In this document: positions 1,680 through 16,455 of the stretch, one piece after another
Layout of the letters: each line of letters starts with the position of its first letter
Numbering within the stretch: position 1 is the stretch's first letter
Assembly: GCA_049521895.1 (NCBI GenBank)
Contig: JBEKOJ010000001.1
Span: forward strand, 162,717 to 226,716
From: Candidatus Saccharimonadales bacterium
Lineage (GTDB): Bacteria > Patescibacteriota > Saccharimonadia > Saccharimonadales > UBA10212
Direction: 5' to 3'
DNA: 64,000 bases
Notes under the pieces: generated by a model
Seen by the model: only the letters and a program-made list of their open reading frames with translations
Databases searched by the model: none
Told to the model about the DNA's origin: nothing
Position numbers and translations under genes: made by a program

Positions 1680-3080
1680 CTACGTCCGCGACCATATGGG
1701 GCCTCTGGACGTGTCATTGATCTCTATACCCTGCTCTTTGAGCTTATCGCGTAGCTCATCAGCCAATGCCCAATTGCCTGAGTCGCGGGCTTGTTCCCTT
1801 TGTGCGATCATTCCCTTCTGTTGAGACGCCAGGTCTTCTGAGCGAAGCCTTAGCCCTAGAATATCGTTCAGCCATTGAATCAAAGCAATAAATGCCTTAC
1901 GGCTGGTATGACTGACGCCGCTCGTTTCAATAGCCGTAGCTAGAGAACTTAAGGCTACCAACGCCAACGGAGTATTGAGGTCATTTTCCAGAGCTTCCTG
2001 AATGGCCTGCTTATGGCTGTCGAGCGCTCCGGCAGTAATCGCCGTTTGGCTATCGGTGGTCTGCCACTGCTGGTCGGCCATTGACCGGTAGGACAACAGA
2101 CGATTTTGTGCGGCCGCCAGTTCATCCCAGTTGAATTTGGACTGGGTGCGATAGTGCGATTGGAGAACCAGTAAGCGCAAGGCATCAAGACTGTAGCCTT
2201 TTTGCTCGATGTCTTCGAGAGTGATGAAATTACCCGCGCTCTTAGCCATTTTTTGCCGGTCTACGAGTATATGGTTGGTATGCATCCAATACCGAGCCAA
2301 CGGCTTGCCGGTCACGGCTTCTGACTGGGCGATTTCATTGCTGTGATGGATCGGCACGTGATCTATGCCGCCGGAGTGGATATCGATAGTTTCGCCCAAG
2401 TATTTCATTATCATTGCCGAACACTCTATGTGCCAGCCGGGGAAACCCTTGCCCCAGGGGCTATCCCACTCCATATCGCGCTTACTGCCACGGGGCGAGA
2501 ATTTCCACAGGGCGAAATCGGAGTGATGCTGTTTTTGCGGATTAGATTCTATCCGCTCACTTGACTGTTGTTCGTCTAAATCCAAGCGGGCAAAATCGGC
2601 GTATTTGGGGAACTTACTAGTGTCATAATATAAGCCGTCGTCAATTTGGTAGGTATAGCCCTTCTCTTGCAGTTGTTTTATCAACTCAATCTGCTCATTT
2701 ATGTGCTCGGTAGCCCGTGGCAGATGATCTGGCCAGGCGATGCTGAGGCGTTCCAAACCTTTTAGGAAATAGTCGGTATAAAATTTGGCGACCTCCCAGG
2801 CACTTTTACCTTCGCGTCGGGCACTTTTTTCCAGCTTATCTTCACCCTCGTCGGCATCACTGACTAGATGCCCTACATCGGTAATATTTAATACCCACTT
2901 GGGTCGGTAGCCGGCCAGCCTAAGCGTTCGGATAAGCAAATCATAGCGGATAAAGGTAAACCAGTTGCCGACATGGGGATAATCGTAAACCGTCGGGCCG
3001 CAAGTATAAACGGTTACAACTGGCGGATTCAACGGCGCGAAATCTTCTACTTGTCTGGACAGTGTGTTATATAGTTTCAT
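1680..3080 (-). CDS. cysS: Cysteine--tRNA ligase
   Basis: The N-terminus MKLYNTLSRQ..YTCGPTVYDYPHVGN carries the HIGH-type motif, and KMAKSAGN is the KMSKS motif. Length is 466 aa. Confidence 0.95.
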   Translation of the reverse strand: MKLYNTLSRQVEDFAPLNPPVVTVYTCGPTVYDYPHVGNWFTFIRYDLLIRTLRLAGYRPKWVLNITDVGHLVSDADEGEDKLEKSARREGKSAWEVAKFYTDYFLKGLERLSIAWPDHLPRATEHINEQIELIKQLQEKGYTYQIDDGLYYDTSKFPKYADFARLDLDEQQSSERIESNPQKQHHSDFALWKFSPRGSKRDMEWDSPWGKGFPGWHIECSAMIMKYLGETIDIHSGGIDHVPIHHSNEIAQSEAVTGKPLARYWMHTNHILVDRQKMAKSAGNFITLEDIEQKGYSLDALRLLVLQSHYRTQSKFNWDELAAAQNRLLSYRSMADQQWQTTDSQTAITAGALDSHKQAIQEALENDLNTPLALVALSSLATAIETSGVSHTSRKAFIALIQWLNDILGLRLRSEDLASQQKGMIAQREQARDSGNWALADELRDKLKEQGIEINDTSRGPIWSRT

Positions 3081-7649: not shown

Positions 7650-9077
7650 TCAGGATTCTAGCACCTCGGCGCCACCGAAGATATTGCTTATGTCATTAAG
7701 AGGGTCACCTGTGGGCTGCTCGGCTGCTTTCGGGTCGACTTGAGTTGGTACTTTGGGCTGCAACTTAGACTTATCGACCAAGGTTTCGATTTTTAATTTG
7801 ACGCCGGTAGTCTCTTCTATGAGTTTCCCTAGCAGGTCGGCATTAGCAGCTTGGGTAAGCTTTTTCTGGTGTAGCGGGAATTCAAAGAAAAGTTTTAGGG
7901 TCGAGCCTGATAGCTCGGGTTTAGCTAAGCGGAGCGCACTATAAAGTGTCGCGGCTTCGGACTTTGTCCTATTTACTATGCGATCCCAATCTTTTAGGTC
8001 AAAATTTGAGCCAGCTTTTCTTGGGCGATTGACCGCCGAAATGGGCTTAGTAGCCGTGGCATCTTGGGCGCTGAGCTCACTGTGCGATTTACTAACGGTC
8101 GCTGAGTTTAGCGCCCCGCGGGCATTATTCTGACTTGCAGCCTCTAGCAGGCATATCTCGAGATAATCCGCTGGCTCAGCGCTGGCTGGGACGGCAATCA
8201 ACTCTTTAAGTAGAGCCGGCAGCCAACTAGCATCAAGACCGGCCAGAGCCTTCGATCGTAGCCCTTTTGCTAGTTGTCGGGCAACGACAGCCGGGTTAAC
8301 TCCCTGTTCCCGCATACTCTCTAGAGTTGCCAGGACAGACGCAACGCTTCCGTTCTCAACCGCTTCGGATAGTTTGTCAATAGCTTCAGCGGGGGGCAGC
8401 CCCAGCATTTCTAGGACTTGTTGTTCCTTAATGGGTTTTTTGCTGGCGCTCAGCTGGTCGAGCATGCTAATACTGTCACGCAGGGTACCTTCGCCGTGTT
8501 CGGCTAAGAGCTCCAAAGCTTTGGTCGAAATATCAATCTTTTCCTTTTTAGCAATCGTGCCTAAATGCTCTATAACTTGAGAACGGCTGAGTGTTTTAAA
8601 ACCGAAACGCTGCGTGCGGCTAACGATAGTATCCGGCAGTTTGTGCTCTTCGGTAGTGGCTAGAATAAAGATACAATGTGCCGGTGGCTCTTCCAATGTC
8701 TTTAAGAGTGCATTGAAGGCCTCTTTGGTTAACATATGTACCTCATCGATGATATAGACTTTATACTTGGCTGATGTTGGTGCAATATGAACGCGTTCGC
8801 GTAGTTCGCGAATCTCGTCTATACGGCGGTTGCTGGCGGCATCAATCTCGATTATGTCCAGATGGATGCTCTCATCGCTATAGGCTAAGTTATTAACTTC
8901 GTGAGCTAAGATCCGTGCTACGCTGGTTTTGCCGACACCTCTCGGCCCGGTAAAAAGATAAGCATGGGCAATCCGCCGGCTTTTTAGGGCGTTTTGTAGA
9001 GTCTTGGTAATATGTTCCTGCCCGACAATTTCAGCAAAAGACCTGGAACGGTACTTACGATATAACACTTGCCCCAT
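7650..9077 (-). CDS. dnaX: DNA polymerase III subunit gamma/tau
   Basis: The N-terminus LYRKYRSRSFAEIVGQEHI..GPRGVGKTS, the DEVHML box and the SRTQRF sensor motif match DnaX. Confidence 0.93.
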   Translation of the reverse strand: MGQVLYRKYRSRSFAEIVGQEHITKTLQNALKSRRIAHAYLFTGPRGVGKTSVARILAHEVNNLAYSDESIHLDIIEIDAASNRRIDEIRELRERVHIAPTSAKYKVYIIDEVHMLTKEAFNALLKTLEEPPAHCIFILATTEEHKLPDTIVSRTQRFGFKTLSRSQVIEHLGTIAKKEKIDISTKALELLAEHGEGTLRDSISMLDQLSASKKPIKEQQVLEMLGLPPAEAIDKLSEAVENGSVASVLATLESMREQGVNPAVVARQLAKGLRSKALAGLDASWLPALLKELIAVPASAEPADYLEICLLEAASQNNARGALNSATVSKSHSELSAQDATATKPISAVNRPRKAGSNFDLKDWDRIVNRTKSEAATLYSALRLAKPELSGSTLKLFFEFPLHQKKLTQAANADLLGKLIEETTGVKLKIETLVDKSKLQPKVPTQVDPKAAEQPTGDPLNDISNIFGGAEVLES

Positions 9078-9081
9078 ACAA

Positions 9082-9180
9082 CCATTTTACATTTTTCACT
9101 TGGCATTTGACATTTATTTACCATTGTTAAATGTTCAATGCTAAATTAATGTAAATTGAAAATTGTAAATTGAAAATTCA
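9082..9180. repeat. Low-complexity quasi-palindromic spacer repeat, family A (CATTT/ACC arm and AAATG/TAAATTG arm)
   Basis: The 5' arm ccattttacatttttcacttggcatttgacatttatttaccattg faces the 3' arm caatgctaaattaatgtaaattgaaaattgtaaattgaaaatt. It shares the core GCATTTGACAT with the copies at 28983 and 37111. Confidence 0.6.
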
Positions 9181-9188
9181 GGTCGCGC

Positions 9189-9701
9189 TTAGAGTGCGGC
9201 CTCTAAAGCGGCCCATTCGGCATCCACGGAGTCATCTTCGGGAATGTTCACGCTTACTTGGTCGCCTGGTTTGGCTTTAAAATATGTCACACTGGCCAGC
9301 AGCACACGGTATTGTTTATCACCAACGTCTACAAAATAGTGTCCGTCTTTCTGATTGAGAACACCAACCAGCTGTTTGCGCGGAATCGGGCCGATCTGTT
9401 TATACATAAAGGCGCCGTCTTCAGCTATGGTCAGCTTCAGGATATCGCCTTGCACCAATTTTGACTTGCTGGCGTAATTAGCCGGCACCGGATAGGTTTT
9501 ACCATCGGAACCGACCATATTCTGGCCATCAAACACCCCCTCGACAATCTTGCCTAGGGATTTATCCTTAGCTTTACCTATCAACTCCGGTTCGTCGCCT
9601 ACTAAGCTTACGATCAGCTCTTTGGCCGCCGCCAAGCTAGTTTCTGCTTCACTTATAAGTGATTTCAAGCGTTTAATTTGTTTTTCTGGTATGTCTGCCA
9701 T
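9189..9701 (-). CDS. Hypothetical protein (170 aa)
   Basis: A long ORF with a GGAGA-type RBS (ggagaaacaaaATG). I recognised no domain. Confidence 0.65.
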   Translation of the reverse strand: MADIPEKQIKRLKSLISEAETSLAAAKELIVSLVGDEPELIGKAKDKSLGKIVEGVFDGQNMVGSDGKTYPVPANYASKSKLVQGDILKLTIAEDGAFMYKQIGPIPRKQLVGVLNQKDGHYFVDVGDKQYRVLLASVTYFKAKPGDQVSVNIPEDDSVDAEWAALEAAL

Positions 9702-9860: not shown

Positions 9861-10352
9861 CTAAGCTAGTTCTACGGTCGCGCCAGCTTCTTCGAGCGTC
9901 TTTTTGGCCACTTCAGCTTCTTCTTTTGACGCCTTCTCTTTAATGGTTTTGGGGGCACCGTCCACCAAGGCTTTGGCCTCACCCAATCCTAACCCGGTGA
10001 TATCCTTAACGGCTTTAATGACGGCTACTTTTTGAGCGCCGGCATCTTTAAGAATCACATCGTACTCGTTTTTCTCTTCTGCTGCTGCACTTTCACCGCT
10101 GGCGGCCGGAGCGGCCGTGACGGCTACCGCCGGAGCAGCGGCCGAAACACCCCAGTGCTCCTCAAGAAATTTCACAAACTTACTGATCTCAAGAGCGCTA
10201 AGGTTATCTAGCTCTTTGACTAATCCGGCAAACTCTTTAGGAACCTCAACTTTGGTTTCGACTTTCTTGGACTCTGTCTTTGGAGTCTCCGCTTTAGGTT
10301 CCTCGGTTTTTACTTCGGTTACCTCGTTTTTTACTTCGTCGTTGTCTGCCAT
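9861..10352 (-). CDS. rplL: 50S ribosomal protein bL12 (L7/L12) with about 40-aa K/E-rich N-terminal extension
   Basis: The C-terminal domain ..[44 protein letters not shown].. is canonical bL12, and the gene follows rplJ. Confidence 0.95.
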
Positions 10353-10372: not shown

Positions 10373-10906
10373 TTATTGGCCGAGACTATCGGCTCTGGCA
10401 TTTAACACATTTAATATTCCGCGTACATTACCGGCTATAGTATTGACCAGTCCACTAACCGGAGCGGCAATTGCCGCCACAGCCATGCCCCTAAGCTGCT
10501 GCTTATTCGGCAGCGCGGCTAGGACTTTAACATCCTCAGCATCTAGAAAATTGCCGTCATTTGTCAGGGCGCCAACAAATTCTATCTGTGTCTGGGTTTT
10601 GGCGAAGGCCGCTAGATCTTGGGCTGGCGCCACCTCATCCTGTTCGTTGAAAGCATATATTAACTGCCCATGCAGAAAGCCAGTGTCAAGATCTTTATAC
10701 TGCTCATTACCTTCTAGGACTTTCTTAAATAGGCGATTTTTTACCACTCGCACAGATGTATTATTAGCCCCAGCATCACGGCGCAGTTGTTGCATAGCTT
10801 TAACCGACGTACCCTGATATTGGGCGACGACTGTCAGCTTAGAGTCCGCCAATAGTTTAGCGACATCGTTGATGACCTGATTTTTCTTGTCTTTACTGAG
10901 CGCCAT
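10373..10906 (-). CDS. rplJ: 50S ribosomal protein uL10
   Basis: 177 aa with a uL10 pattern (..LTVVAQYQGTSVKAMQQLRR..). Sits immediately upstream of rplL. Confidence 0.93.
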   Translation of the reverse strand: MALSKDKKNQVINDVAKLLADSKLTVVAQYQGTSVKAMQQLRRDAGANNTSVRVVKNRLFKKVLEGNEQYKDLDTGFLHGQLIYAFNEQDEVAPAQDLAAFAKTQTQIEFVGALTNDGNFLDAEDVKVLAALPNKQQLRGMAVAAIAAPVSGLVNTIAGNVRGILNVLNARADSLGQ

Positions 10907-10930
10907 ATTATCTCTTGAGCATTATTTTCT

Positions 10931-10958
10931 ATAAAAAGACCTTGGCGATTTACCAAGG
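10931..10958 (-). terminator. Putative intrinsic attenuator hairpin in the rplJ leader
   Basis: The minus strand reads CCTTGG-taaatcg-CCAAGG followed by TCTTTTTAT, about 25 nt upstream of the rplJ ATG. Confidence 0.45.
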
Positions 10959-11094
10959 ACTACAGAAGATGTCTGCACAACAATACATTGCGCGTTAACC
11001 TCGGTAGCAGATTAAGCCCGCTTGTCGCGGGCAGCTACTGTCTTTGGCAATCTAATAGTAGATTAGCACAACCTGCAACTTCTTACAAGTCCTA
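10959..11094 (-). promoter_or_regulatory. Candidate L10(-L12) autoregulatory leader
   Basis: This 188-nt untranslated gap holds nested stems (GTAGC..GCCCGC-gacaa-GCGGGC..GCTAC) upstream of the attenuator. The position matches known rplJ leaders, but identity was not verified. Confidence 0.35.
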
Positions 11095-13104
11095 TCAATT
11101 CGTCTTTTTAGAGCGTTGCCGGGGCTTTGTTTTTTTATCAGTTTTAGCCTGGGTTAAGCTTAATAACGCCTTGGCCGATTGTTTTTCTAGGGCTGCCGCC
11201 AGGAGAGGGTGTACTTCCCGGACTTTTTCCCTCAAAGCCGCGATTAACTTATCTAAACCGGAGGCTCGCTGAATTGGCGTGCTGGGAAAGAACAGCCTTT
11301 GGGCGTTAGTACTGAACTGCCAGCGCGATTTATGCCCTAGCAAGGCTGCATAAGCGGCCTCTCTACCCCTGTTGGCGGATTGCAATTCGCTAAATAGTTT
11401 CAGGCTCCCATCGAAACATTCGATGAATTCATTTTCCAACCCGACTCGCTCTACCGGTTCAGGTAATTCATAGCCATAACGGGGAGTAGCTGATTGCAAC
11501 CTTGGGTCATCCACCAACCCGCTAGCTATAGCCTCGGATATTGTCGACCGGTCGCTCAAAGCATCCCAACGGTATCGTACTTGCTCCAGTACGCTATTTG
11601 ATGAATCTGCCACCAGAGTACGTAGGGCTGTCTCTTTTCGTTCGTAGGTCCAGCGCTCAACTCCATCAGATAGCTCATTTCTCCCCAAATCGGTATACGG
11701 ATAAATACCATCGACTAGCAGTGAAAATTCACTTCTGGGCCAAAATTCCAACAACTTAAGGGGTTCGCCGGCCAATGCTAAATTAGTGGGTAGATCAGTT
11801 GATTTGAGGAGTGCAGTCAGCTTGCTAGTTGACGGATGTGCATGAGGGACTGCCTCGGCCTTAAACGCAACCCTCAGTATCTTAGCTAAAGCCTTAAATT
11901 CCGGCAGCTGATTAGCTTCTAGTTGTAGCGCGAGTAAATTGATTGACGCAGAGCTGCCGACTACCGTACCAGATGTTAGGGCAGCCAGCGGTATAGTTGG
12001 TTGTAAGCAATGATGGATTAGATCTTCTAGTTTGGGAGTGTTCTGGCTGGCACTCTTCTTTTGCTGCTCAAAAAGTCTAAGTATGCCAGTTTGCATCTGC
12101 CGCTGTAGCACAATGAGTTTCTTCATAGCACTGTTAAAGTTCTTAGCAAGTAACGGGCTTAGGGTCGGCGGTAAGTAATATTGATATTTGCCGTCCTTTG
12201 CGCCCCAGTCCCATGGGTGTTTGAAACGTAGTAATATGCCTGGGGCAGCCTCAATTACGCTGGCGGCTAGTAAGCTTAGTTGGGTAATTTCAACCGTTAA
12301 ATGGTCGCTTTCTGCCTCGGGCGCAGCGGCCGGATGGGTGTGAGGTCTTTCGTGGTCTTCCTCTAATTTAACCACTGTTTTTCTACCCTTATGAGGAGGG
12401 CTGGCTGGCAAGAGTGGCTGAATGACGTCCCAGATTCGGTTATTTATAGTTGGGATATCTAGCAAACGATTTCGCTCGGTACACTCGATGGCTACAAAAT
12501 CCTTCGGAAATAGTTGGCAAAGCAAGTCATAGGCCTTAAGCGTTGCGCGCAAGTGATGGGTGTCTTTCTCGTGCTCGTCTGGTTTGATTCCTGTTTTATG
12601 CGCTCGAGTTTTAATTAAGCGCTCAGCCGTTTCAGTCGGTACTCGTAAGAATAAATTGATATCCGGCCGCGGGATACCCAGCAGGCTGAATTCCAAGCTG
12701 TCAGCCCATACAAAAAATCCTCTCTGTTCAGTCTCATCTTCAAATTTAGATCCTTGGTGGGCCATGTTAGAGCCGGCGTATCTATTGGAGAGAACGATTT
12801 TACCGCGCCTAAGCGCCTGGCGTATCTCTGGTGCTGCCTCATAGCGGTCTAGGGCGTAAAACATTGAAGCTGCATAGGGGTTAATTTGGCTCGCTGGTCC
12901 ATAATGGCCGCCTAGATAGCGCTGTACGAAGTGGCTGGATGGTTGGTCGTACCGCGGAAAATCAAACACCTCGACTTCATAGCCGACAGCTCTTAGCCGC
13001 TCAGCAAGCAAGTTAAACTGGGTGTTCTTACCGGAGCCGTCAGAGCCTTCTAAAACGATGAATTTACCAGGGTATTCTTGCATGACGCTATGCTCATATC
13101 CCAC
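11095..13104 (-). CDS. tmk: Fusion protein: N-terminal thymidylate kinase plus C-terminal ThyX-like (Thy1 fold) region
   Basis: Residues 1-215 match dTMP kinase (FIVLEGSDGSGKNTQ P-loop, DRY motif). The C-terminal ~430 aa carries ThyX-like strings: RYRWDALSDRS (compare RHRxxSxxxxSxR) and REAAYAALLGHKSRWQFSTNAQRL (compare ARxxLPxxxxTxxxxxxNxRxL). Confidence 0.7.
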   Translation of the reverse strand: MGYEHSVMQEYPGKFIVLEGSDGSGKNTQFNLLAERLRAVGYEVEVFDFPRYDQPSSHFVQRYLGGHYGPASQINPYAASMFYALDRYEAAPEIRQALRRGKIVLSNRYAGSNMAHQGSKFEDETEQRGFFVWADSLEFSLLGIPRPDINLFLRVPTETAERLIKTRAHKTGIKPDEHEKDTHHLRATLKAYDLLCQLFPKDFVAIECTERNRLLDIPTINNRIWDVIQPLLPASPPHKGRKTVVKLEEDHERPHTHPAAAPEAESDHLTVEITQLSLLAASVIEAAPGILLRFKHPWDWGAKDGKYQYYLPPTLSPLLAKNFNSAMKKLIVLQRQMQTGILRLFEQQKKSASQNTPKLEDLIHHCLQPTIPLAALTSGTVVGSSASINLLALQLEANQLPEFKALAKILRVAFKAEAVPHAHPSTSKLTALLKSTDLPTNLALAGEPLKLLEFWPRSEFSLLVDGIYPYTDLGRNELSDGVERWTYERKETALRTLVADSSNSVLEQVRYRWDALSDRSTISEAIASGLVDDPRLQSATPRYGYELPEPVERVGLENEFIECFDGSLKLFSELQSANRGREAAYAALLGHKSRWQFSTNAQRLFFPSTPIQRASGLDKLIAALREKVREVHPLLAAALEKQSAKALLSLTQAKTDKKTKPRQRSKKTN

Positions 13105-13105
13105 T

Positions 13106-13831
13106 CTAGTAAGTTCTTAGCCCTTTGATTGCTTTAGGCATACTACGCTTGTCCATATAGGCTTTGGGCAGCATTTGCTCCGGCCGCCAGCGTTTAATAA
13201 TAGTTTTTAAGTCACTACCCTGCTGGTATTTACCGCTAAATCCGTGGCTCCGCCCTTCGCCATATGTCCCCTTAACCGGCCCCGTGTGATGAAAGACAGC
13301 TTGACCGATACGTTCGCCCACTGGTAAAAGCACTATATCTTTATGATTAAGGTTATATATTTCAAGTGTTAGGCGGTTGATATAGCCAGGATCAACCCAG
13401 CCAGCGTCAAAACATACGGCGATACCGTTGCGGCCCCAGCTGGAGCGCGATTTTAGCTCGTATGCACCGGGGGGATGGATGCCAAAAAACTCGTGCGTAT
13501 GGGCTAAGATGCGTTCGCCGGGTTTAAGTGGTATTACCGGCTGGTTAGGTGGGATGCCTTTCAGGAGCTTTATGCCATTTCCGTCGCACCAATCCTTGTG
13601 GTCTATGGCCACGTACGGCCCGCTGAAGTAGCGTTCTACGTCAAGCTCATCAAAGGGGTTGTACAGGGTGTGATCACCCGTGCGCTCGGTGCGGTAGTAA
13701 TAATAGCCCAGCGTTATATCCAGGCTGGCATGGGCTACATGCTTTGGATTGAAAGGCTCACAGATTATATGACCTGTCTTAACAGCCTCTCTGATCTGTG
13801 TGTTGCTGTATACCCCCATGTGTCTAATCAA
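13106..13831 (-). CDS. dcd: dCTP deaminase-like protein (dUTPase superfamily)
   Basis: ..IICEPFNPKHVAHASLDITLG.. and ..GWVDPGYINRLTLEIYN.. are Dcd/Dut-fold motifs. The start is uncertain: TTG at 13831 or ATG at 13819. Confidence 0.8.
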   Translation of the reverse strand: MIRHMGVYSNTQIREAVKTGHIICEPFNPKHVAHASLDITLGYYYYRTERTGDHTLYNPFDELDVERYFSGPYVAIDHKDWCDGNGIKLLKGIPPNQPVIPLKPGERILAHTHEFFGIHPPGAYELKSRSSWGRNGIAVCFDAGWVDPGYINRLTLEIYNLNHKDIVLLPVGERIGQAVFHHTGPVKGTYGEGRSHGFSGKYQQGSDLKTIIKRWRPEQMLPKAYMDKRSMPKAIKGLRTY

Positions 13832-13891: not shown

Positions 13892-14887
13892 TTAAGAGTT
13901 ATTCAGATTGATTTTGATGGATGGGCCCATGGTTGTGGCTAGATAAACGGATTTTATATAGCTTCCCTTAATGCCCGCAGGCTTGGCGGCTCGAAGACTT
14001 GCAAGTATTGCCTCTACATTATTGGTCAATTTGTCGGCCCCGAAACTTACTTTACCGATTCCTGCATGAACGATGCCAGCTTGGTCGATACGGTATTCTA
14101 CACGGCCAGCCCTGGCTTCTAGCACAGCCTTAGCTATATCCGTAGTTATGGTGCCGCTTTTAGAATTGGGCATTAAGCCTCGCGGCCCGAGCAAGCGGGC
14201 ATATTTACCCAGTCGGGGCATCAGGGCGGGAGTAGTAATCAAGATGTCAAAATCCAGTTGCTCTTTGTCCAGTTGAGCCAGTATGTCTTCATTGCCAGCT
14301 AAAGAAGCGCCGGCTGTTTTTGCCTTAGAGGCATCTGTAGGCTCTGCTAGAACGGCTATGCGTAGTTTTTTACCGGTACCAGCAGGCAAAATTACTGTTC
14401 CGCGCACGTTTTGCTCGGATTGGGTAGGGTCAACCCCAAGATTGGCGTGCATTTCGACTGTGGCGTCAAATTTTGTAGGACTGGTATTTGTTATTAATTC
14501 TAGGGCCTCCTTGAGACCGTAGTTTTTGGTTCGGTCCACCAGCTTAGCAACCTCACGGTATTTCTTGCCGGCACGTTCCGTACGGCTGCGAGGTGGGGTT
14601 TTTTTAGTCAGCTTTTTAGCAACCTCGATTTCGGCGGCCGTTTTGGATACTTTGCGGGCTTCTTTGGTTTGTTTTTCTTCAGCTTCAGCTGTCGCCTTAG
14701 CGCTACGTTTTCCGGCTTTAGCAAAAGGTTTTATAATCTCTTTGGCCACAGCATCGGTTTTTGTGGCTCCGAGGACTTCCTTCGCTGCCTTTAGCTCTTT
14801 AGTTGATTTGGTTTTCTTGACCATAGCATCAGACTCAACTTGCACTGCGTCGGTGCTGGATTTCACTTTGCTAGCTTTCTCTACCAT
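13892..14887 (-). CDS. rplA: 50S ribosomal protein uL1 with about 100-aa K/A/E-rich N-terminal extension
   Basis: The core from about residue 105 (..KYREVAKLVDRTKNYGLKEALELI..NVRGTVILPAGTGKK..) is canonical uL1, and the gene follows rplK. Confidence 0.93.
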   Translation of the reverse strand: MVEKASKVKSSTDAVQVESDAMVKKTKSTKELKAAKEVLGATKTDAVAKEIIKPFAKAGKRSAKATAEAEEKQTKEARKVSKTAAEIEVAKKLTKKTPPRSRTERAGKKYREVAKLVDRTKNYGLKEALELITNTSPTKFDATVEMHANLGVDPTQSEQNVRGTVILPAGTGKKLRIAVLAEPTDASKAKTAGASLAGNEDILAQLDKEQLDFDILITTPALMPRLGKYARLLGPRGLMPNSKSGTITTDIAKAVLEARAGRVEYRIDQAGIVHAGIGKVSFGADKLTNNVEAILASLRAAKPAGIKGSYIKSVYLATTMGPSIKINLNNS

Positions 14888-14949: not shown

Positions 14950-15381
14950 TTAACTTTCTATCTCAATGCCCATGCTGCGGGCAGTACCAGCAACCATTTT
15001 TTTAATGGTTTCAATGTCTTCTGTGTTCATATCCTCGGCTTTAGCTTGGGCGATTTCGGTTAGCTGCGATTGGCTGAGCTTTTTCTCCAGCTTGGCTTTG
15101 TTGGGCTCACCAGAACCTTTCTCCTCTTTTAGGGCGGCTAAGATCAGTTCGTCTGTCGGCGTACCGACAACTCGCCAGTTCATACTCCTATCATCATAAA
15201 TGGTTATATGCACTGTCAACATTTGCCCCATGCGGTCTTTGGTCTGCTCGTTAAAAGGATTTACGAAGTCCATTATGTTCACGCCGTATTGGCCCAAGCT
15301 GGATCCCACTGGTGGCCCGGCACTAGCCTGTCCGCCGCGGATTTTCAATTTTAGATTTGCTTTAACTTCTTTAGCCATCAA
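14950..15381 (-). CDS. rplK: 50S ribosomal protein uL11
   Basis: 143 aa. ..GGQASAGPPVGSSLGQYGVNIMDFVNPFNEQT.. is canonical uL11. Confidence 0.96.
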   Translation of the reverse strand: MMAKEVKANLKLKIRGGQASAGPPVGSSLGQYGVNIMDFVNPFNEQTKDRMGQMLTVHITIYDDRSMNWRVVGTPTDELILAALKEEKGSGEPNKAKLEKKLSQSQLTEIAQAKAEDMNTEDIETIKKMVAGTARSMGIEIES

Positions 15382-15479: not shown

Positions 15480-16022
15480 TTAGACTCTTTTCACCTGAAG
15501 GCCATCCAGCTCTACTGGAGTTTCGCGGCCAAACATATTAACCAGTACTTTTAATTTACCTTTTTGGGCGTCAATCTCGTTTATAGTGCCGTCAAAGCCC
15601 TTAAATGGCCCGTCTATGATGTTGACCACTTCGCCGATCTGGTAATCAAACTTGTGCTTGGGTTCTTCGCGGCCCATGCGCTTCATGATTTTAGCAATTT
15701 CTTCGGGCTCTACGGGCGTCGGTTCGGTACCGGTACCAACAAAACCAGTGACATTAGGTGTATTGCGGACAATATACCAAGCGTCCTCAGATAACTTCAT
15801 CTCTACCAACACATAGCCCTGGAAGATACGTTTTTCGACAATTTTGCGCTTGCCATTTTTGATTTCTATCATCTTTTCCTTGGGGACCAGCACCTGAAAA
15901 ATTTTATCCCCCATATCTAAGCTTTCCGCACGTTGGCGGATACTCTCGGCTACTTTTTCCTCATAGCCACTGTAGGTATGGATAGCGTACCACTGCTTGG
16001 TTGAATCGTATCGTTTGGCCAT
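15480..16022 (-). CDS. nusG: Transcription termination/antitermination factor NusG
   Basis: The NGN domain (WYAIHTYSGYEEKV) and KOW domain (GEVVNIIDGPFKGFDGTINEID) are both present. Confidence 0.95.
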   Translation of the reverse strand: MAKRYDSTKQWYAIHTYSGYEEKVAESIRQRAESLDMGDKIFQVLVPKEKMIEIKNGKRKIVEKRIFQGYVLVEMKLSEDAWYIVRNTPNVTGFVGTGTEPTPVEPEEIAKIMKRMGREEPKHKFDYQIGEVVNIIDGPFKGFDGTINEIDAQKGKLKVLVNMFGRETPVELDGLQVKRV

Positions 16023-16026
16023 GTTA

Positions 16027-16455
16027 TTACTCTTTTAAAATCACTTTCTTGAATAGTGCATCCAGCCCCGTATCTACACCGTAAACTAAAGCACCAAACA
16101 CGATGGCAAAAATAAATACCGCGCCTGTCAGCCGCCAGGTTTCGCGCCTGCTGGGCCAGGTAACTTGCCGTACTTCACGCCAGGCATTCACAAAATAGCG
16201 CGGCGCTAGCCAGCGAAGCACCCTGCCGATTTTAGCTACCACTAGTGCTATGGGGCCGGGTAGCTTAACCGACGGGGGTTTTATTTTTTTTAGAGGAGCT
16301 TTAGCCTTCGTTAATAGCGGTTTTACGCGCCCTGGCCTGGATTTTTTTTCAGCCTCAGCTTGCGCGATCTCTACCCGCTCGCGGATGGTCGGTGCAGTTT
16401 TCCTAATCCGCGGCCTGGCTTTTGGTGATTCTTCAGCCGGTGATTCTTCAGCCAA
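16027..16455 (-). CDS. secE: Preprotein translocase subunit SecE (extended basic N-terminus, TTG start)
   Basis: The C-terminal TM segment and ..EVRQVTWPSRRET.. are the SecE signature, and the gene lies upstream of nusG. Confidence 0.85.
   Translation of the reverse strand: MAEESPAEESPKARPRIRKTAPTIRERVEIAQAEAEKKSRPGRVKPLLTKAKAPLKKIKPPSVKLPGPIALVVAKIGRVLRWLAPRYFVNAWREVRQVTWPSRRETWRLTGAVFIFAIVFGALVYGVDTGLDALFKKVILKE

Follow-up and report, generated by a model that had tools for sequence, protein, structure and literature searches.

A thymidylate kinase fused to a probable remnant of tandem ThyX at the rplKA–rplJL boundary of a Saccharibacteria genome

A 64,000-nucleotide stretch of a Candidatus Saccharimonadales genome (contig JBEKOJ010000001.1, positions 162,717 to 226,716; hereafter the window) carries two adjacent genes on the minus strand between the ribosomal protein genes rplA and rplJ. 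One encodes a long protein that begins with a thymidylate kinase (Tmk) domain, and the other, directly upstream, a protein resembling dCTP deaminase (Dcd). In an earlier note on this DNA, the C-terminal region of the long protein was read as a divergent flavin-dependent thymidylate synthase (ThyX). The locus therefore raises the question of whether this region still converts deoxyuridine monophosphate (dUMP) to deoxythymidine monophosphate (dTMP) or has been kept for another reason. The answer that we consider probable is that the protein combines an active Tmk with a vestigial, non-catalytic remnant of a tandem ThyX, which is kept as a structural scaffold.

The fusion open reading frame (ORF), as found by the ORF tool, spans positions 11095–13104 on the minus strand, with a GTG start at 13104 and a length of 669 aa. 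The likely start is the ATG at 13083 (M8), which is used in public gene calls; the orthologues P0002, P0003, and P0005 begin with MQEYPG. Residue numbers given below follow the 669-aa frame. This ORF and its 241-aa neighbour, the Tmk domain, and the linker rich in P, H, and E were all found where the earlier note had placed them. The parts of the fusion gene, including the flavin adenine dinucleotide (FAD)-binding and dUMP-binding sites discussed below, are as follows:

11095..13083, minus strand: Tmk–pseudoThyX fusion gene, 662 aa from ATG 13083
12460..13083, minus strand: thymidylate kinase domain, residues 8–215 (PF02223, NF005923, phrog_761)
12304..12459, minus strand: linker, its distal residues ~232–267 rich in P, H, and E and variable in the fusion-protein alignment A1
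11794..12303, minus strand: pseudoThyX half 1, residues ~268–437, a Thy1 fold without its first ~108 residues, substrate and cofactor motifs all lost
11170..11793, minus strand: pseudoThyX half 2, residues ~438–645, a complete Thy1 fold, better conserved than half 1
11518..11526, minus strand: A527-S528-G529, equivalent to the FAD-binding RHR site
11476..11487, minus strand: T540-P541-R542-Y543, equivalent to S88-G89-R90-Y91 of Thermotoga maritima ThyX (dUMP phosphate loop and Tyr lid)
11098..11169, minus strand: basic C-terminal tail, 9 K/R in the last 25 residues, in place of the ancestral helix 'LTRLAAERYTQYKL'

As part of the same probable reading, the N-terminal domain is predicted to be a working thymidylate kinase that phosphorylates dTMP to dTDP. 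Pfam PF02223 matches residues 18–209 (E = 3e-21; 76.4 bits vs. a cut-off of 27), and PHROG thymidylate kinase families (phrog_761) match the same domain. The NCBIfam Tmk equivalogs score under their whole-protein cut-offs (NF005923, 123 vs. 193 bits; TIGR00041, 66 vs. 83 bits). The P-loop GSDGSGKNT (G19-SDGSGK25-NT) and the D86-R87-Y88 motif are both present, and are conserved in alignment A1.

The C-terminal region of approximately 400 aa is a tandem, two-Thy1 ThyX by descent; on the basis of profile comparison and structure modelling, this homology can be regarded as established. Profile A2, built from ten fusion proteins without a Thy1 match of their own, was aligned by hhalign to profile A3, built from 16 stand-alone tandem ThyX proteins, with a probability of 99.8% and an E-value of 1.3e-27 over 351 columns. 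The alignment runs across both Thy1 repeats, with A2 residues 4–372 placed onto residues 109–510 of P0014, a 549-aa stand-alone protein with 141 bits to Pfam Thy1 in two stretches. P0014 belongs to a family of ~540-aa proteins with two Thy1 domains, which are annotated as 'FAD-dependent thymidylate synthase' and amount to at least 8000 clusters, and some members of the fusion family also match Pfam Thy1 (P0012, 51 bits; P0009, 34 bits). Foldseek comparison of an AlphaFold2 model of residues 268–669 (predicted local distance difference test, pLDDT, 74.7) with the PDB returned ThyX only, T. maritima ThyX being matched at E~7e-6 with a probability of 1.00 and the alignment covering ~213 of its 213–220 residues. 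When half 1 was modelled alone (residues 268–439; pLDDT, 74.2), the top 50 Foldseek matches were all ThyX (best E-value, 3.7e-3; TMq up to 0.63), and a profile of half 2 (S+A class) matched T. maritima ThyX by hhalign with a probability of 93% and an E-value of 3e-7. The ThyX kinship and the tandem Thy1-like duplication suggested in the earlier note were thus both borne out, with significant Thy1-fold matches from hhalign as well as from Foldseek.

Single-sequence searches with residues 270–669 alone gave no Pfam match at E ≤ 10 and no PDB sequence match, and the full fusion protein matched neither Pfam PF02511 (Thy1; gathering score, 24.8 bits) at E ≤ 10 nor NCBIfam TIGR02170. Consequently, of the two Pfam families named in the earlier note, PF02223 is matched by this protein and PF02511 is not. 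A phmmer search of the PDB with P0014 likewise gave no match, and the alignment of each half to the single T. maritima sequence by hhalign was not significant (E = 0.04 and E = 0.2), so the intermediate tandem-ThyX profile was needed. The sole match of A2 among PDB sequences, alpha-catenin at E = 0.23, was judged to be due to chance. The columns that are invariant across the A2 alignment fall mostly in half 2.

What remains of the ThyX active site was examined next to what has been lost. Nothing in the fusion corresponds to the first ~108 residues of stand-alone tandem ThyX, where the 'PEVIKGALFSRYSRS' and 'GDDSIGELGGAH' motifs are invariant, as the match between A2 and A3 starts at about residue 109. 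Among 159 columns conserved in at least 15 of the 16 tandem ThyX proteins, 40 lie in this missing N-terminal segment, 20 are gapped, and 99 are aligned; 27 of the aligned columns are identical in the window protein and 19 are kept in at least eight of the ten fusions. For the residue map, T. maritima TM0449 (sequence identical to PDB 1KQ4) served as the reference. The half-2 map is significant, whereas that of half 1 comes from a weak alignment (probability, 5%), in which the register near RHR is uncertain. The equivalent positions are as follows:

T. maritima R78-H79-R80: region P288...gap in half 1; A527-S528-G529 in half 2
T. maritima S83: G289 in half 1; D532 in half 2
T. maritima E86: R293 in half 1; S538 in half 2
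T. maritima S88: K295 in half 1; T540 in half 2
T. maritima R90: P297 in half 1; R542 in half 2
T. maritima Y91: W298 in half 1; Y543 in half 2
T. maritima R147: Q368 in half 1; A584 in half 2
T. maritima N163: S384 in half 1; N600 in half 2
T. maritima R165: A386 in half 1; Q602 in half 2
T. maritima R174: Q394 in half 1; gap in half 2

According to the literature, the RHR motif of flavin-dependent thymidylate synthases forms hydrogen bonds with the phosphate, ribityl, and isoalloxazine groups of FAD (PMC6514825). Contacts to the substrate dUMP come from the first Arg of RHR and the R174 equivalent, together with a Ser, an Arg, and a Tyr lid from another subunit (PMC6514825). Set against the residue map, these roles indicate that the window protein keeps only the Ser/Arg/Tyr triplet of dUMP contacts, and in one half: the loop is retained in half 2 (T540, R542, and Y543) and lost in half 1 (K295, P297, and W298). 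At the RHR site, every stand-alone or intact-fusion sequence has RHR, and the class of eroded fusions to which the window protein belongs shows no conservation, while T540, R542, and Y543 are each kept in 15 of 16 eroded-class sequences and throughout the seven intact fusions. By an HMM-anchored count, one of 20 key ThyX positions, N600, is kept by the window protein. Judged from these residues, the ThyX-derived domain is almost certainly inactive, a catalytically dead relic that would no longer make dTMP.

The two strings quoted in the earlier note as degenerate ThyX signatures do occur, at residues 510 and 581. The second, REAAYAALLGHKSRWQFSTNAQRL, is in register with the helix and strand of ThyX from E144 to N163. 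The first, RYRWDALSDRS, had been compared with the RHR motif and is out of register, as RYRWD aligns with 'YTFDI' (T. maritima F62–V66), upstream of RHR. The reported His-to-Tyr change is a product of this mis-registered alignment, the true RHR site being A527-S528-G529.

Intact relatives of the fusion occupy the same slot. When GTDB species representatives were scanned with A2, 11 loci were recovered, every one of them from Saccharibacteria or Patescibacteria. The fusion lies upstream of rplJ at every one except L011, in which the contig ends inside the fusion gene. On the other side, rplA is found upstream wherever the loci include that DNA (not L011, L012, or L016), with other genes intervening in L018–L021. 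In eight of the ten reference loci with upstream sequence, the Dcd-like gene directly precedes the fusion. The 2.4 kb upstream of the Tmk fusion in L011 (1–2434) have no match to the Dcd-like gene, rplA, or thyA, so the slot has at least one further configuration. A Tmk joined to a complete tandem ThyX is encoded in L017 (OY970318.1, a 799-kb chromosome; 768 aa), in L018 (780 aa), and in L016, which starts inside the fusion gene at a contig end; L017 and L018 have the dcd-like gene directly upstream. These three proteins keep MARLSRR, GDDSVQQLVGQH, EWGRLASYLEQSTRY, NRRHKPGR, DLQRHRMVDD...TPRYGY, and NAREAFHLHELRTxPQGHPGYR, retain 18–19 of the 20 key ThyX positions, and score 114–132 bits to Pfam Thy1. 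Further intact fusions are P0092, P0103, P0113, and P0160.

Between the intact and the eroded forms the decay is graded. The Thy1 score falls from 131.9 bits in L017 and 114.1 in L018 to 82.8 in L021, 61.5 in P0079, 59.7 in P0065, 38.9 in P0058, and 32.6 in L020, with no match in L019 or in the window protein. Among 141 near-full-length members, a sample retrieved with an eroded-class profile and hence biased toward that class, seven are intact, six partial, and 128 eroded, and 116 of the eroded ones also lack the N-terminal segment. The family contains two Tmk types with 19–26% mutual identity, whose intact fusions carry ThyX modules that are 66–71% identical. Because intact as well as eroded ThyX partners occur with either Tmk type, erosion has happened at least twice. 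One eroded member of 620 aa, P0005, bears the NCBI label 'Candidatus Nitrosopolaris sp.', an archaeon; it is probably a binning contaminant, since all other organism-named members (11 loci and three NCBI proteins) are from Saccharibacteria or Patescibacteria. In the databases, the fusion proteins, intact forms included, are named 'thymidylate kinase' or 'dTMP kinase'. The literature searched contained no description of Tmk–ThyX fusions, of a pseudo-ThyX domain, or of the dTMP source of Saccharibacteria. The components belong to known families; the novelty lies in the joining of Tmk to ThyX and in the graded and recurrent decay of the ThyX part to a pseudoenzyme within a conserved slot of a ribosomal operon.

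Selection on the remnant was estimated from the proportions of nonsynonymous (pN) and synonymous (pS) differences instead of dN/dS, as synonymous sites are saturated between species (pS ~0.78–0.88). The Tmk domain is the most constrained part of the fusion protein, with a pN of 0.10–0.15 between species, compared with 0.28–0.43 in the pseudoThyX halves for the closest pairs. The pN of the pseudoThyX domain is far below the saturated pS, and the domain is thus under purifying selection, although approximately 3–4 times weaker than that on Tmk. Forty-two columns are conserved in at least 15 of the 16 eroded-class sequences. Of these, 32 are equally conserved in intact fusions and 14 also in stand-alone ThyX, while only four are specific to the eroded class, all of them conservative (V to L, V to A, K to Q, and V to F). 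A new active site is unlikely, because no new polar motif has arisen in the eroded class. The fusion clade, intact and eroded members alike, has about 18 residues of its own, among them P456, Y487, T540, R542, Y543, F564, S567, L568, S572, and H591; these may be candidates for an interface between Tmk and ThyX or between oligomer subunits.

The same residues bear on a different reading, in which the ThyX-derived domain, non-catalytic but ligand-binding, would sense dUMP or dTMP and allosterically tune the fused Tmk. It overlaps with the scaffold explanation and differs from it by assigning the domain an active regulatory role. It is consistent with the nature of the sole surviving active-site element, the dUMP-phosphate loop with its Tyr lid, whose T, R, and Y are each present in 15 of 16 eroded-class sequences, with the persistence of the invariant half-2 polar residues Q537, Y585, H591, and R594, and with the purifying selection on both halves. 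However, these residues are equally invariant in intact fusions, and so may be structural or interface residues of the clade, and the other dUMP contacts (the first Arg of RHR and the R174 equivalent) are gone. From the sequences compared, a sensor role appears unlikely.

The basic C-terminal tail suggests yet another use of the remnant, namely association with nucleic acid or the ribosome. In addition to the nine K/R of the window protein, at least seven K/R are present within the last 25 residues in 68 of 128 eroded members, and the ancestral helix 'LTRLAAERYTQYKL', found in five of seven intact members, is absent from all 128 eroded ones. The gene is also co-oriented with rplKA and lies upstream of the L10 leader, in a ribosomal-protein operon. 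On the other hand, the tail is not universal, being absent in L019 and L020, and the intact fusions, which lie at the same place in the operon, do not have it. Proteins of the Candidate Phyla Radiation (CPR) commonly have basic, low-complexity termini, the rplA product of the window having a Lys-rich extension as well, and no nucleic-acid-binding fold or motif was found in the remnant. Of all the roles considered here, this one is given the least credence.

The gene upstream of the fusion and the position of both are relevant to what the slot once did. In the window, the order on the minus strand is secE-nusG-rplK-rplA-[dcd-like]-[tmk fusion]-rplJ-rplL, with the following features around the fusion:

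16027–16455, minus strand: secE, first gene of the cluster
15480–16022, minus strand: nusG, cluster gene
14950–15381, minus strand: rplK, cluster gene
13892..14887, minus strand: rplA (L1), 331 aa, PF00687 at residues 134–322 (E = 3.5e-54), upstream boundary of the slot
13106..13819, minus strand: Dcd-like gene, 237 aa from ATG 13819, PF22769, probable dCTP deaminase, possibly dUMP-forming
10923–11065, minus strand: complete L10 leader (RF00557), between the fusion stop codon and rplJ
10373..10906, minus strand: rplJ (L10), PF00466 (E = 4.5e-18), downstream boundary of the slot
9861–10352, minus strand: rplL, after rplJ

The RF00557 covariance model matches the leader over model positions 1–138 of 138 (55.9 bits vs. 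a gathering score of 44; E = 4e-7), and the leader ends 17 nt upstream of the rplJ start. The Dcd-like and fusion genes therefore stand at the natural boundary between the rplKA and rplJL operons, since an intact L10 leader follows them. The earlier note had described the pair as an insertion that splits the secE-nusG-rplKAJL cluster; its position is real and conserved, but the supposed split is this operon boundary.

The ORF tool placed the Dcd-like gene at 13106–13831 on the minus strand, with a TTG start at 13831 and 241 aa, whereas the ATG at 13819, used in public gene calls and preceded by AAGAGG 13 nt upstream, is the likely start. The protein matches PF22769 (E = 2e-30; 106.5 bits vs. 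a cut-off of 27), and the TIGR02274 equivalog falls just under its cut-off (86.8 vs. 92.8 bits). The best PDB relatives (2QXX, E = 4e-13; 4XJC; 1OGH) are bifunctional dCTP deaminase-dUTPases, and the closest enzymes of solved structure, those of Mycobacterium tuberculosis, B. halodurans, and M. jannaschii, form dUMP. As had been remarked in the earlier note, it is longer than classical Dcd, which is explained by an insertion of ~25 aa and a C-terminal extension of ~35 aa. The SSxGR, DPG, and TLE elements (RSSWGRNG...DAGWVDPGYINRLTLEIYN in the window) align with those of the M. tuberculosis and B. halodurans enzymes, and seven of eight species preserve the core RSSWGR...DAGWVDPGY.NRLTLE, including its catalytic Glu. 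The one changed orthologue is that of L017 (8206–8922), in which Ser replaces the catalytic Glu ('RLTLSIYNLN'). Based on these features, the protein is a probable dCTP deaminase that forms dUTP or, as its closest solved relatives do, possibly dUMP. If it is bifunctional, it could be kept for the clearance of dUTP even without a neighbouring synthase.

In some loci the slot also holds other genes of the dTMP pathway beside the fusion (L003/L015, L019, L020, and L021). The ThyA encoded in these islands is canonical and belongs to a large Saccharimonadales clade whose members are 278 aa long, and the slot contains thyA in all four ThyA-bearing Saccharimonadales loci examined; the slot of the window does not. 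A dihydrofolate reductase (DHFR) gene, folA, is present in the islands of L019, L020, and L021, in which the cassette has the order thyA-folA-dcd, and L003/L015 have a deoxyribosyltransferase-like gene instead. L003/L015, L019, and L020 have a dCMP deaminase gene, which L021 lacks. The fusion next to thyA is eroded in L003, L019, and L020 and visibly eroding in L021, where it reads 'EQDARH' for 'EQSTRY' and 'ELHLQPNAH' for 'ELRTxPQGH'. Such a pattern is consistent with a relaxation of selection on ThyX where ThyA is available, and horizontal acquisition of thyA by Patescibacteria has been reported (PMC12455944).

The 'Dcd' of the thyA cassettes (L003 5873–6544, minus strand; L019 11331–11978; L021 11334–11984) matches DCD_N, DCD, and dUTPase in Pfam and lacks the deaminase catalytic Glu, having 'GYEGQLVIPIRN' where others have '...TLE...', with a dUTPase-like motif. 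It is, to judge by these residues, probably a dUTPase rather than a dCTP deaminase. L020 also encodes a second, stand-alone Tmk of 228 aa (8622–9308, minus strand) immediately upstream of its eroded fusion, as well as a thymidine kinase (1804–2382, minus strand) between a conserved 169-aa post-rplL ORF and dnaX. In some lineages, the fused Tmk may itself turn redundant.

These observations allow the possibility of an active synthase to be weighed. The earlier note had proposed that the two genes run dCTP to dU(M/T)P to dTMP to dTDP as a compact module. For L017 and L018, the succession of Dcd-like protein, ThyX, and Tmk appears, from the motifs kept, to be a very plausible and natural compact route; for the window gene, which has one of the 20 key positions, the proposal is not supported. 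That the ThyX-like region is nevertheless still a thymidylate synthase would agree with the Dcd-like protein directly upstream, whose catalytic residues are retained, and with the purifying selection on the domain. Moreover, tblastn of ThyA, ThyX, thymidine kinase, DHFR, and dCMP deaminase against the 64-kb window gave no match, and neither ThyA (±10 kb) nor ThyX turned up in the flanks of seven species loci with a Dcd-like gene and an eroded fusion. Yet half 1 lacks its first ~108 residues, and 19 of the 20 key positions have gone, among them RHR in both halves and the R174 and R165 equivalents; no new polar motif compensates for them, and no Thy1 HMM matches. Equally eroded domains also coexist with a canonical thyA cassette in L003, L019, and L020. 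Retained synthase activity is thus very improbable. It is slightly harder still to credit that the eroded domain and the Dcd-like protein would constitute the only dTMP route of the organism without the canonical RHR/FAD site, with a cofactor, for example, bound differently or supplied in trans; if true, this would be a mechanistically new thymidylate synthase under a 'dTMP kinase' annotation.

The scaffold explanation, to which we return as the preferred one, would account for the locus in the following way. The ancestor may have had a bifunctional Tmk–ThyX beside a dUMP-supplying Dcd-like gene, forming a two-gene dTTP operon at the rplKA–rplJL boundary, an arrangement seen to this day in other Saccharibacteria. 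In the lineage of the window, the first ~108 residues of half 1 have disappeared from the ThyX module, along with virtually all residues that bind FAD and dUMP. The remnant could have been kept since Tmk depends on it structurally, either to fold stably or to assemble into oligomers, a dependence that would be understandable from the obligate oligomerisation of ThyX folds and the dimeric state of Tmk. Some residual nucleotide binding may persist via the T540-P-R542-Y543 loop. Salvage, or a thymidylate synthase encoded at another place in the genome, would supply the dTMP, and the Dcd-like protein would be kept to make dUMP and/or to clear dUTP.

Several observations weigh against this explanation. 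The clear purifying selection on the domain and the kept T-P-R-Y substrate loop are compatible with some ligand-related function, and the scaffold role itself is one that we infer. The searches of the window and of the flanks of related loci described above were negative for the alternative source of dTMP that it predicts. A well-conserved Dcd-like protein with its catalytic Glu is somewhat unexpected beside a supposedly dead synthase, unless it is also a dUTPase. Finally, the structure models are of moderate confidence (pLDDT ~74).

An assembly or gene-calling artefact was considered and rejected: the window DNA is identical in contigs L004–L007 from four independent samples and assemblies, and the domain family comprises 1035 representatives at 50% identity. 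The comparison of window positions 1095–23083 with L004–L007, which originate from two JGI metagenomes, one ENA assembly, and one Logan SRA assembly, gave zero nucleotide differences over 16–22 kb, pointing to a highly clonal population or related samples. Given the complete L10 leader directly before rplJ, autoregulation of rplJL is probably kept in this CPR genome. The rplA product has an N-terminal extension of ~120–130 residues rich in Lys, Ala, and Glu before the Pfam L1 domain (14528–14887, minus strand); relatives also have a long L1 (303–365 aa), and several have an extra ORF of 69–86 aa between rplK and rplA. Directly after rplL lies a 170-aa ORF (9189–9701, minus strand, in the window; 12120–12632 in L001; equivalents in L008–L018), which is 79–88% identical among all Saccharibacteria loci examined and exceeds rplJ and rplL in conservation. 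It has no significant Pfam match (DUF3823 is sub-threshold, E = 0.1) and lies in a neighbourhood of ribosomal proteins and dnaX.

With regard to annotation, the label 'dTMP kinase' causes intact fusions to be missed as thymidylate synthases, and weak Thy1 matches on partly eroded forms could be over-read as evidence of a synthase. Both errors distort reconstructions of dTMP synthesis in these host-dependent bacteria. The family forms a natural, densely sampled series of intact, point-eroded, and truncated forms, and is a good system for studying why dead domains are kept. The slot itself amounts to a variable 'dTTP island' where the rplKA and rplJL operons of Saccharibacteria meet, and it raises the question of where lineages with a Dcd-like gene and an eroded fusion, that of the window included, obtain their thymidylate.

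The known systems nearest to the window protein include the intact Tmk–tandem-ThyX proteins of Saccharibacteria, which have the same domain order, the same slot between rplA and rplJ, and the same Dcd-like gene upstream. They keep the N-terminal segment and 18–19 of the 20 key positions, whereas the window protein lacks the segment, has one such position, and does not match Thy1. Stand-alone tandem ThyX proteins of ~540 aa (such as P0014 and proteins from SAR324 and DPANN) are homologous and have the same two-Thy1 architecture and order of secondary structure elements. In comparison with them, the window protein lacks 'RIGGSPLEKSTRY' and 'GNGR' in half 1 and 'RHR', 'NLR', 'ELR', and 'QGH' in half 2, carries the fused Tmk, and ends in a basic tail rather than the C-terminal helix. 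Canonical homotetrameric ThyX (T. maritima TM0449, 1O26/1KQ4; M. tuberculosis, 2AF6/3GWC) shares the fold according to Foldseek, and the window region has no significant sequence-level match to any PDB ThyX. Unlike these enzymes, it consists of two unequal copies in one polypeptide, and RHRxxSxxxxSxR is absent save for T-x-R-Y in half 2.

The window Dcd-like protein has the Ser/Arg/Asp/Glu catalytic core in common with M. tuberculosis Rv0321 (2QXX) and the M. jannaschii DCD-DUT (1OGH), and differs from both by its ~25-aa insertion, its ~35-aa C-terminal extension, and its sub-cut-off TIGR02274 score. A precedent for a ThyX that is dispensable in the presence of ThyA, paralleling the eroded fusions beside thyA, is the 'atypical ThyX' of C. 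glutamicum NCHU 87078 (3GE9/3FNN), which is, according to the titles of these entries, not required for thymidylate biosynthesis in a ThyA-dependent strain. As far as these entries describe it, it is a stand-alone, single-domain protein, neither truncated nor fused to Tmk, unlike the window protein.

The fusion of consecutive enzymes of the thymidylate cycle is also known from the bifunctional DHFR-thymidylate synthase (DHFR-TS) of protozoa and plants, which is analogous to the ThyX–Tmk that the ancestor may have had. It differs from the window protein in that its synthase has the unrelated ThyA fold and both of its domains are active, with no pseudoenzyme.

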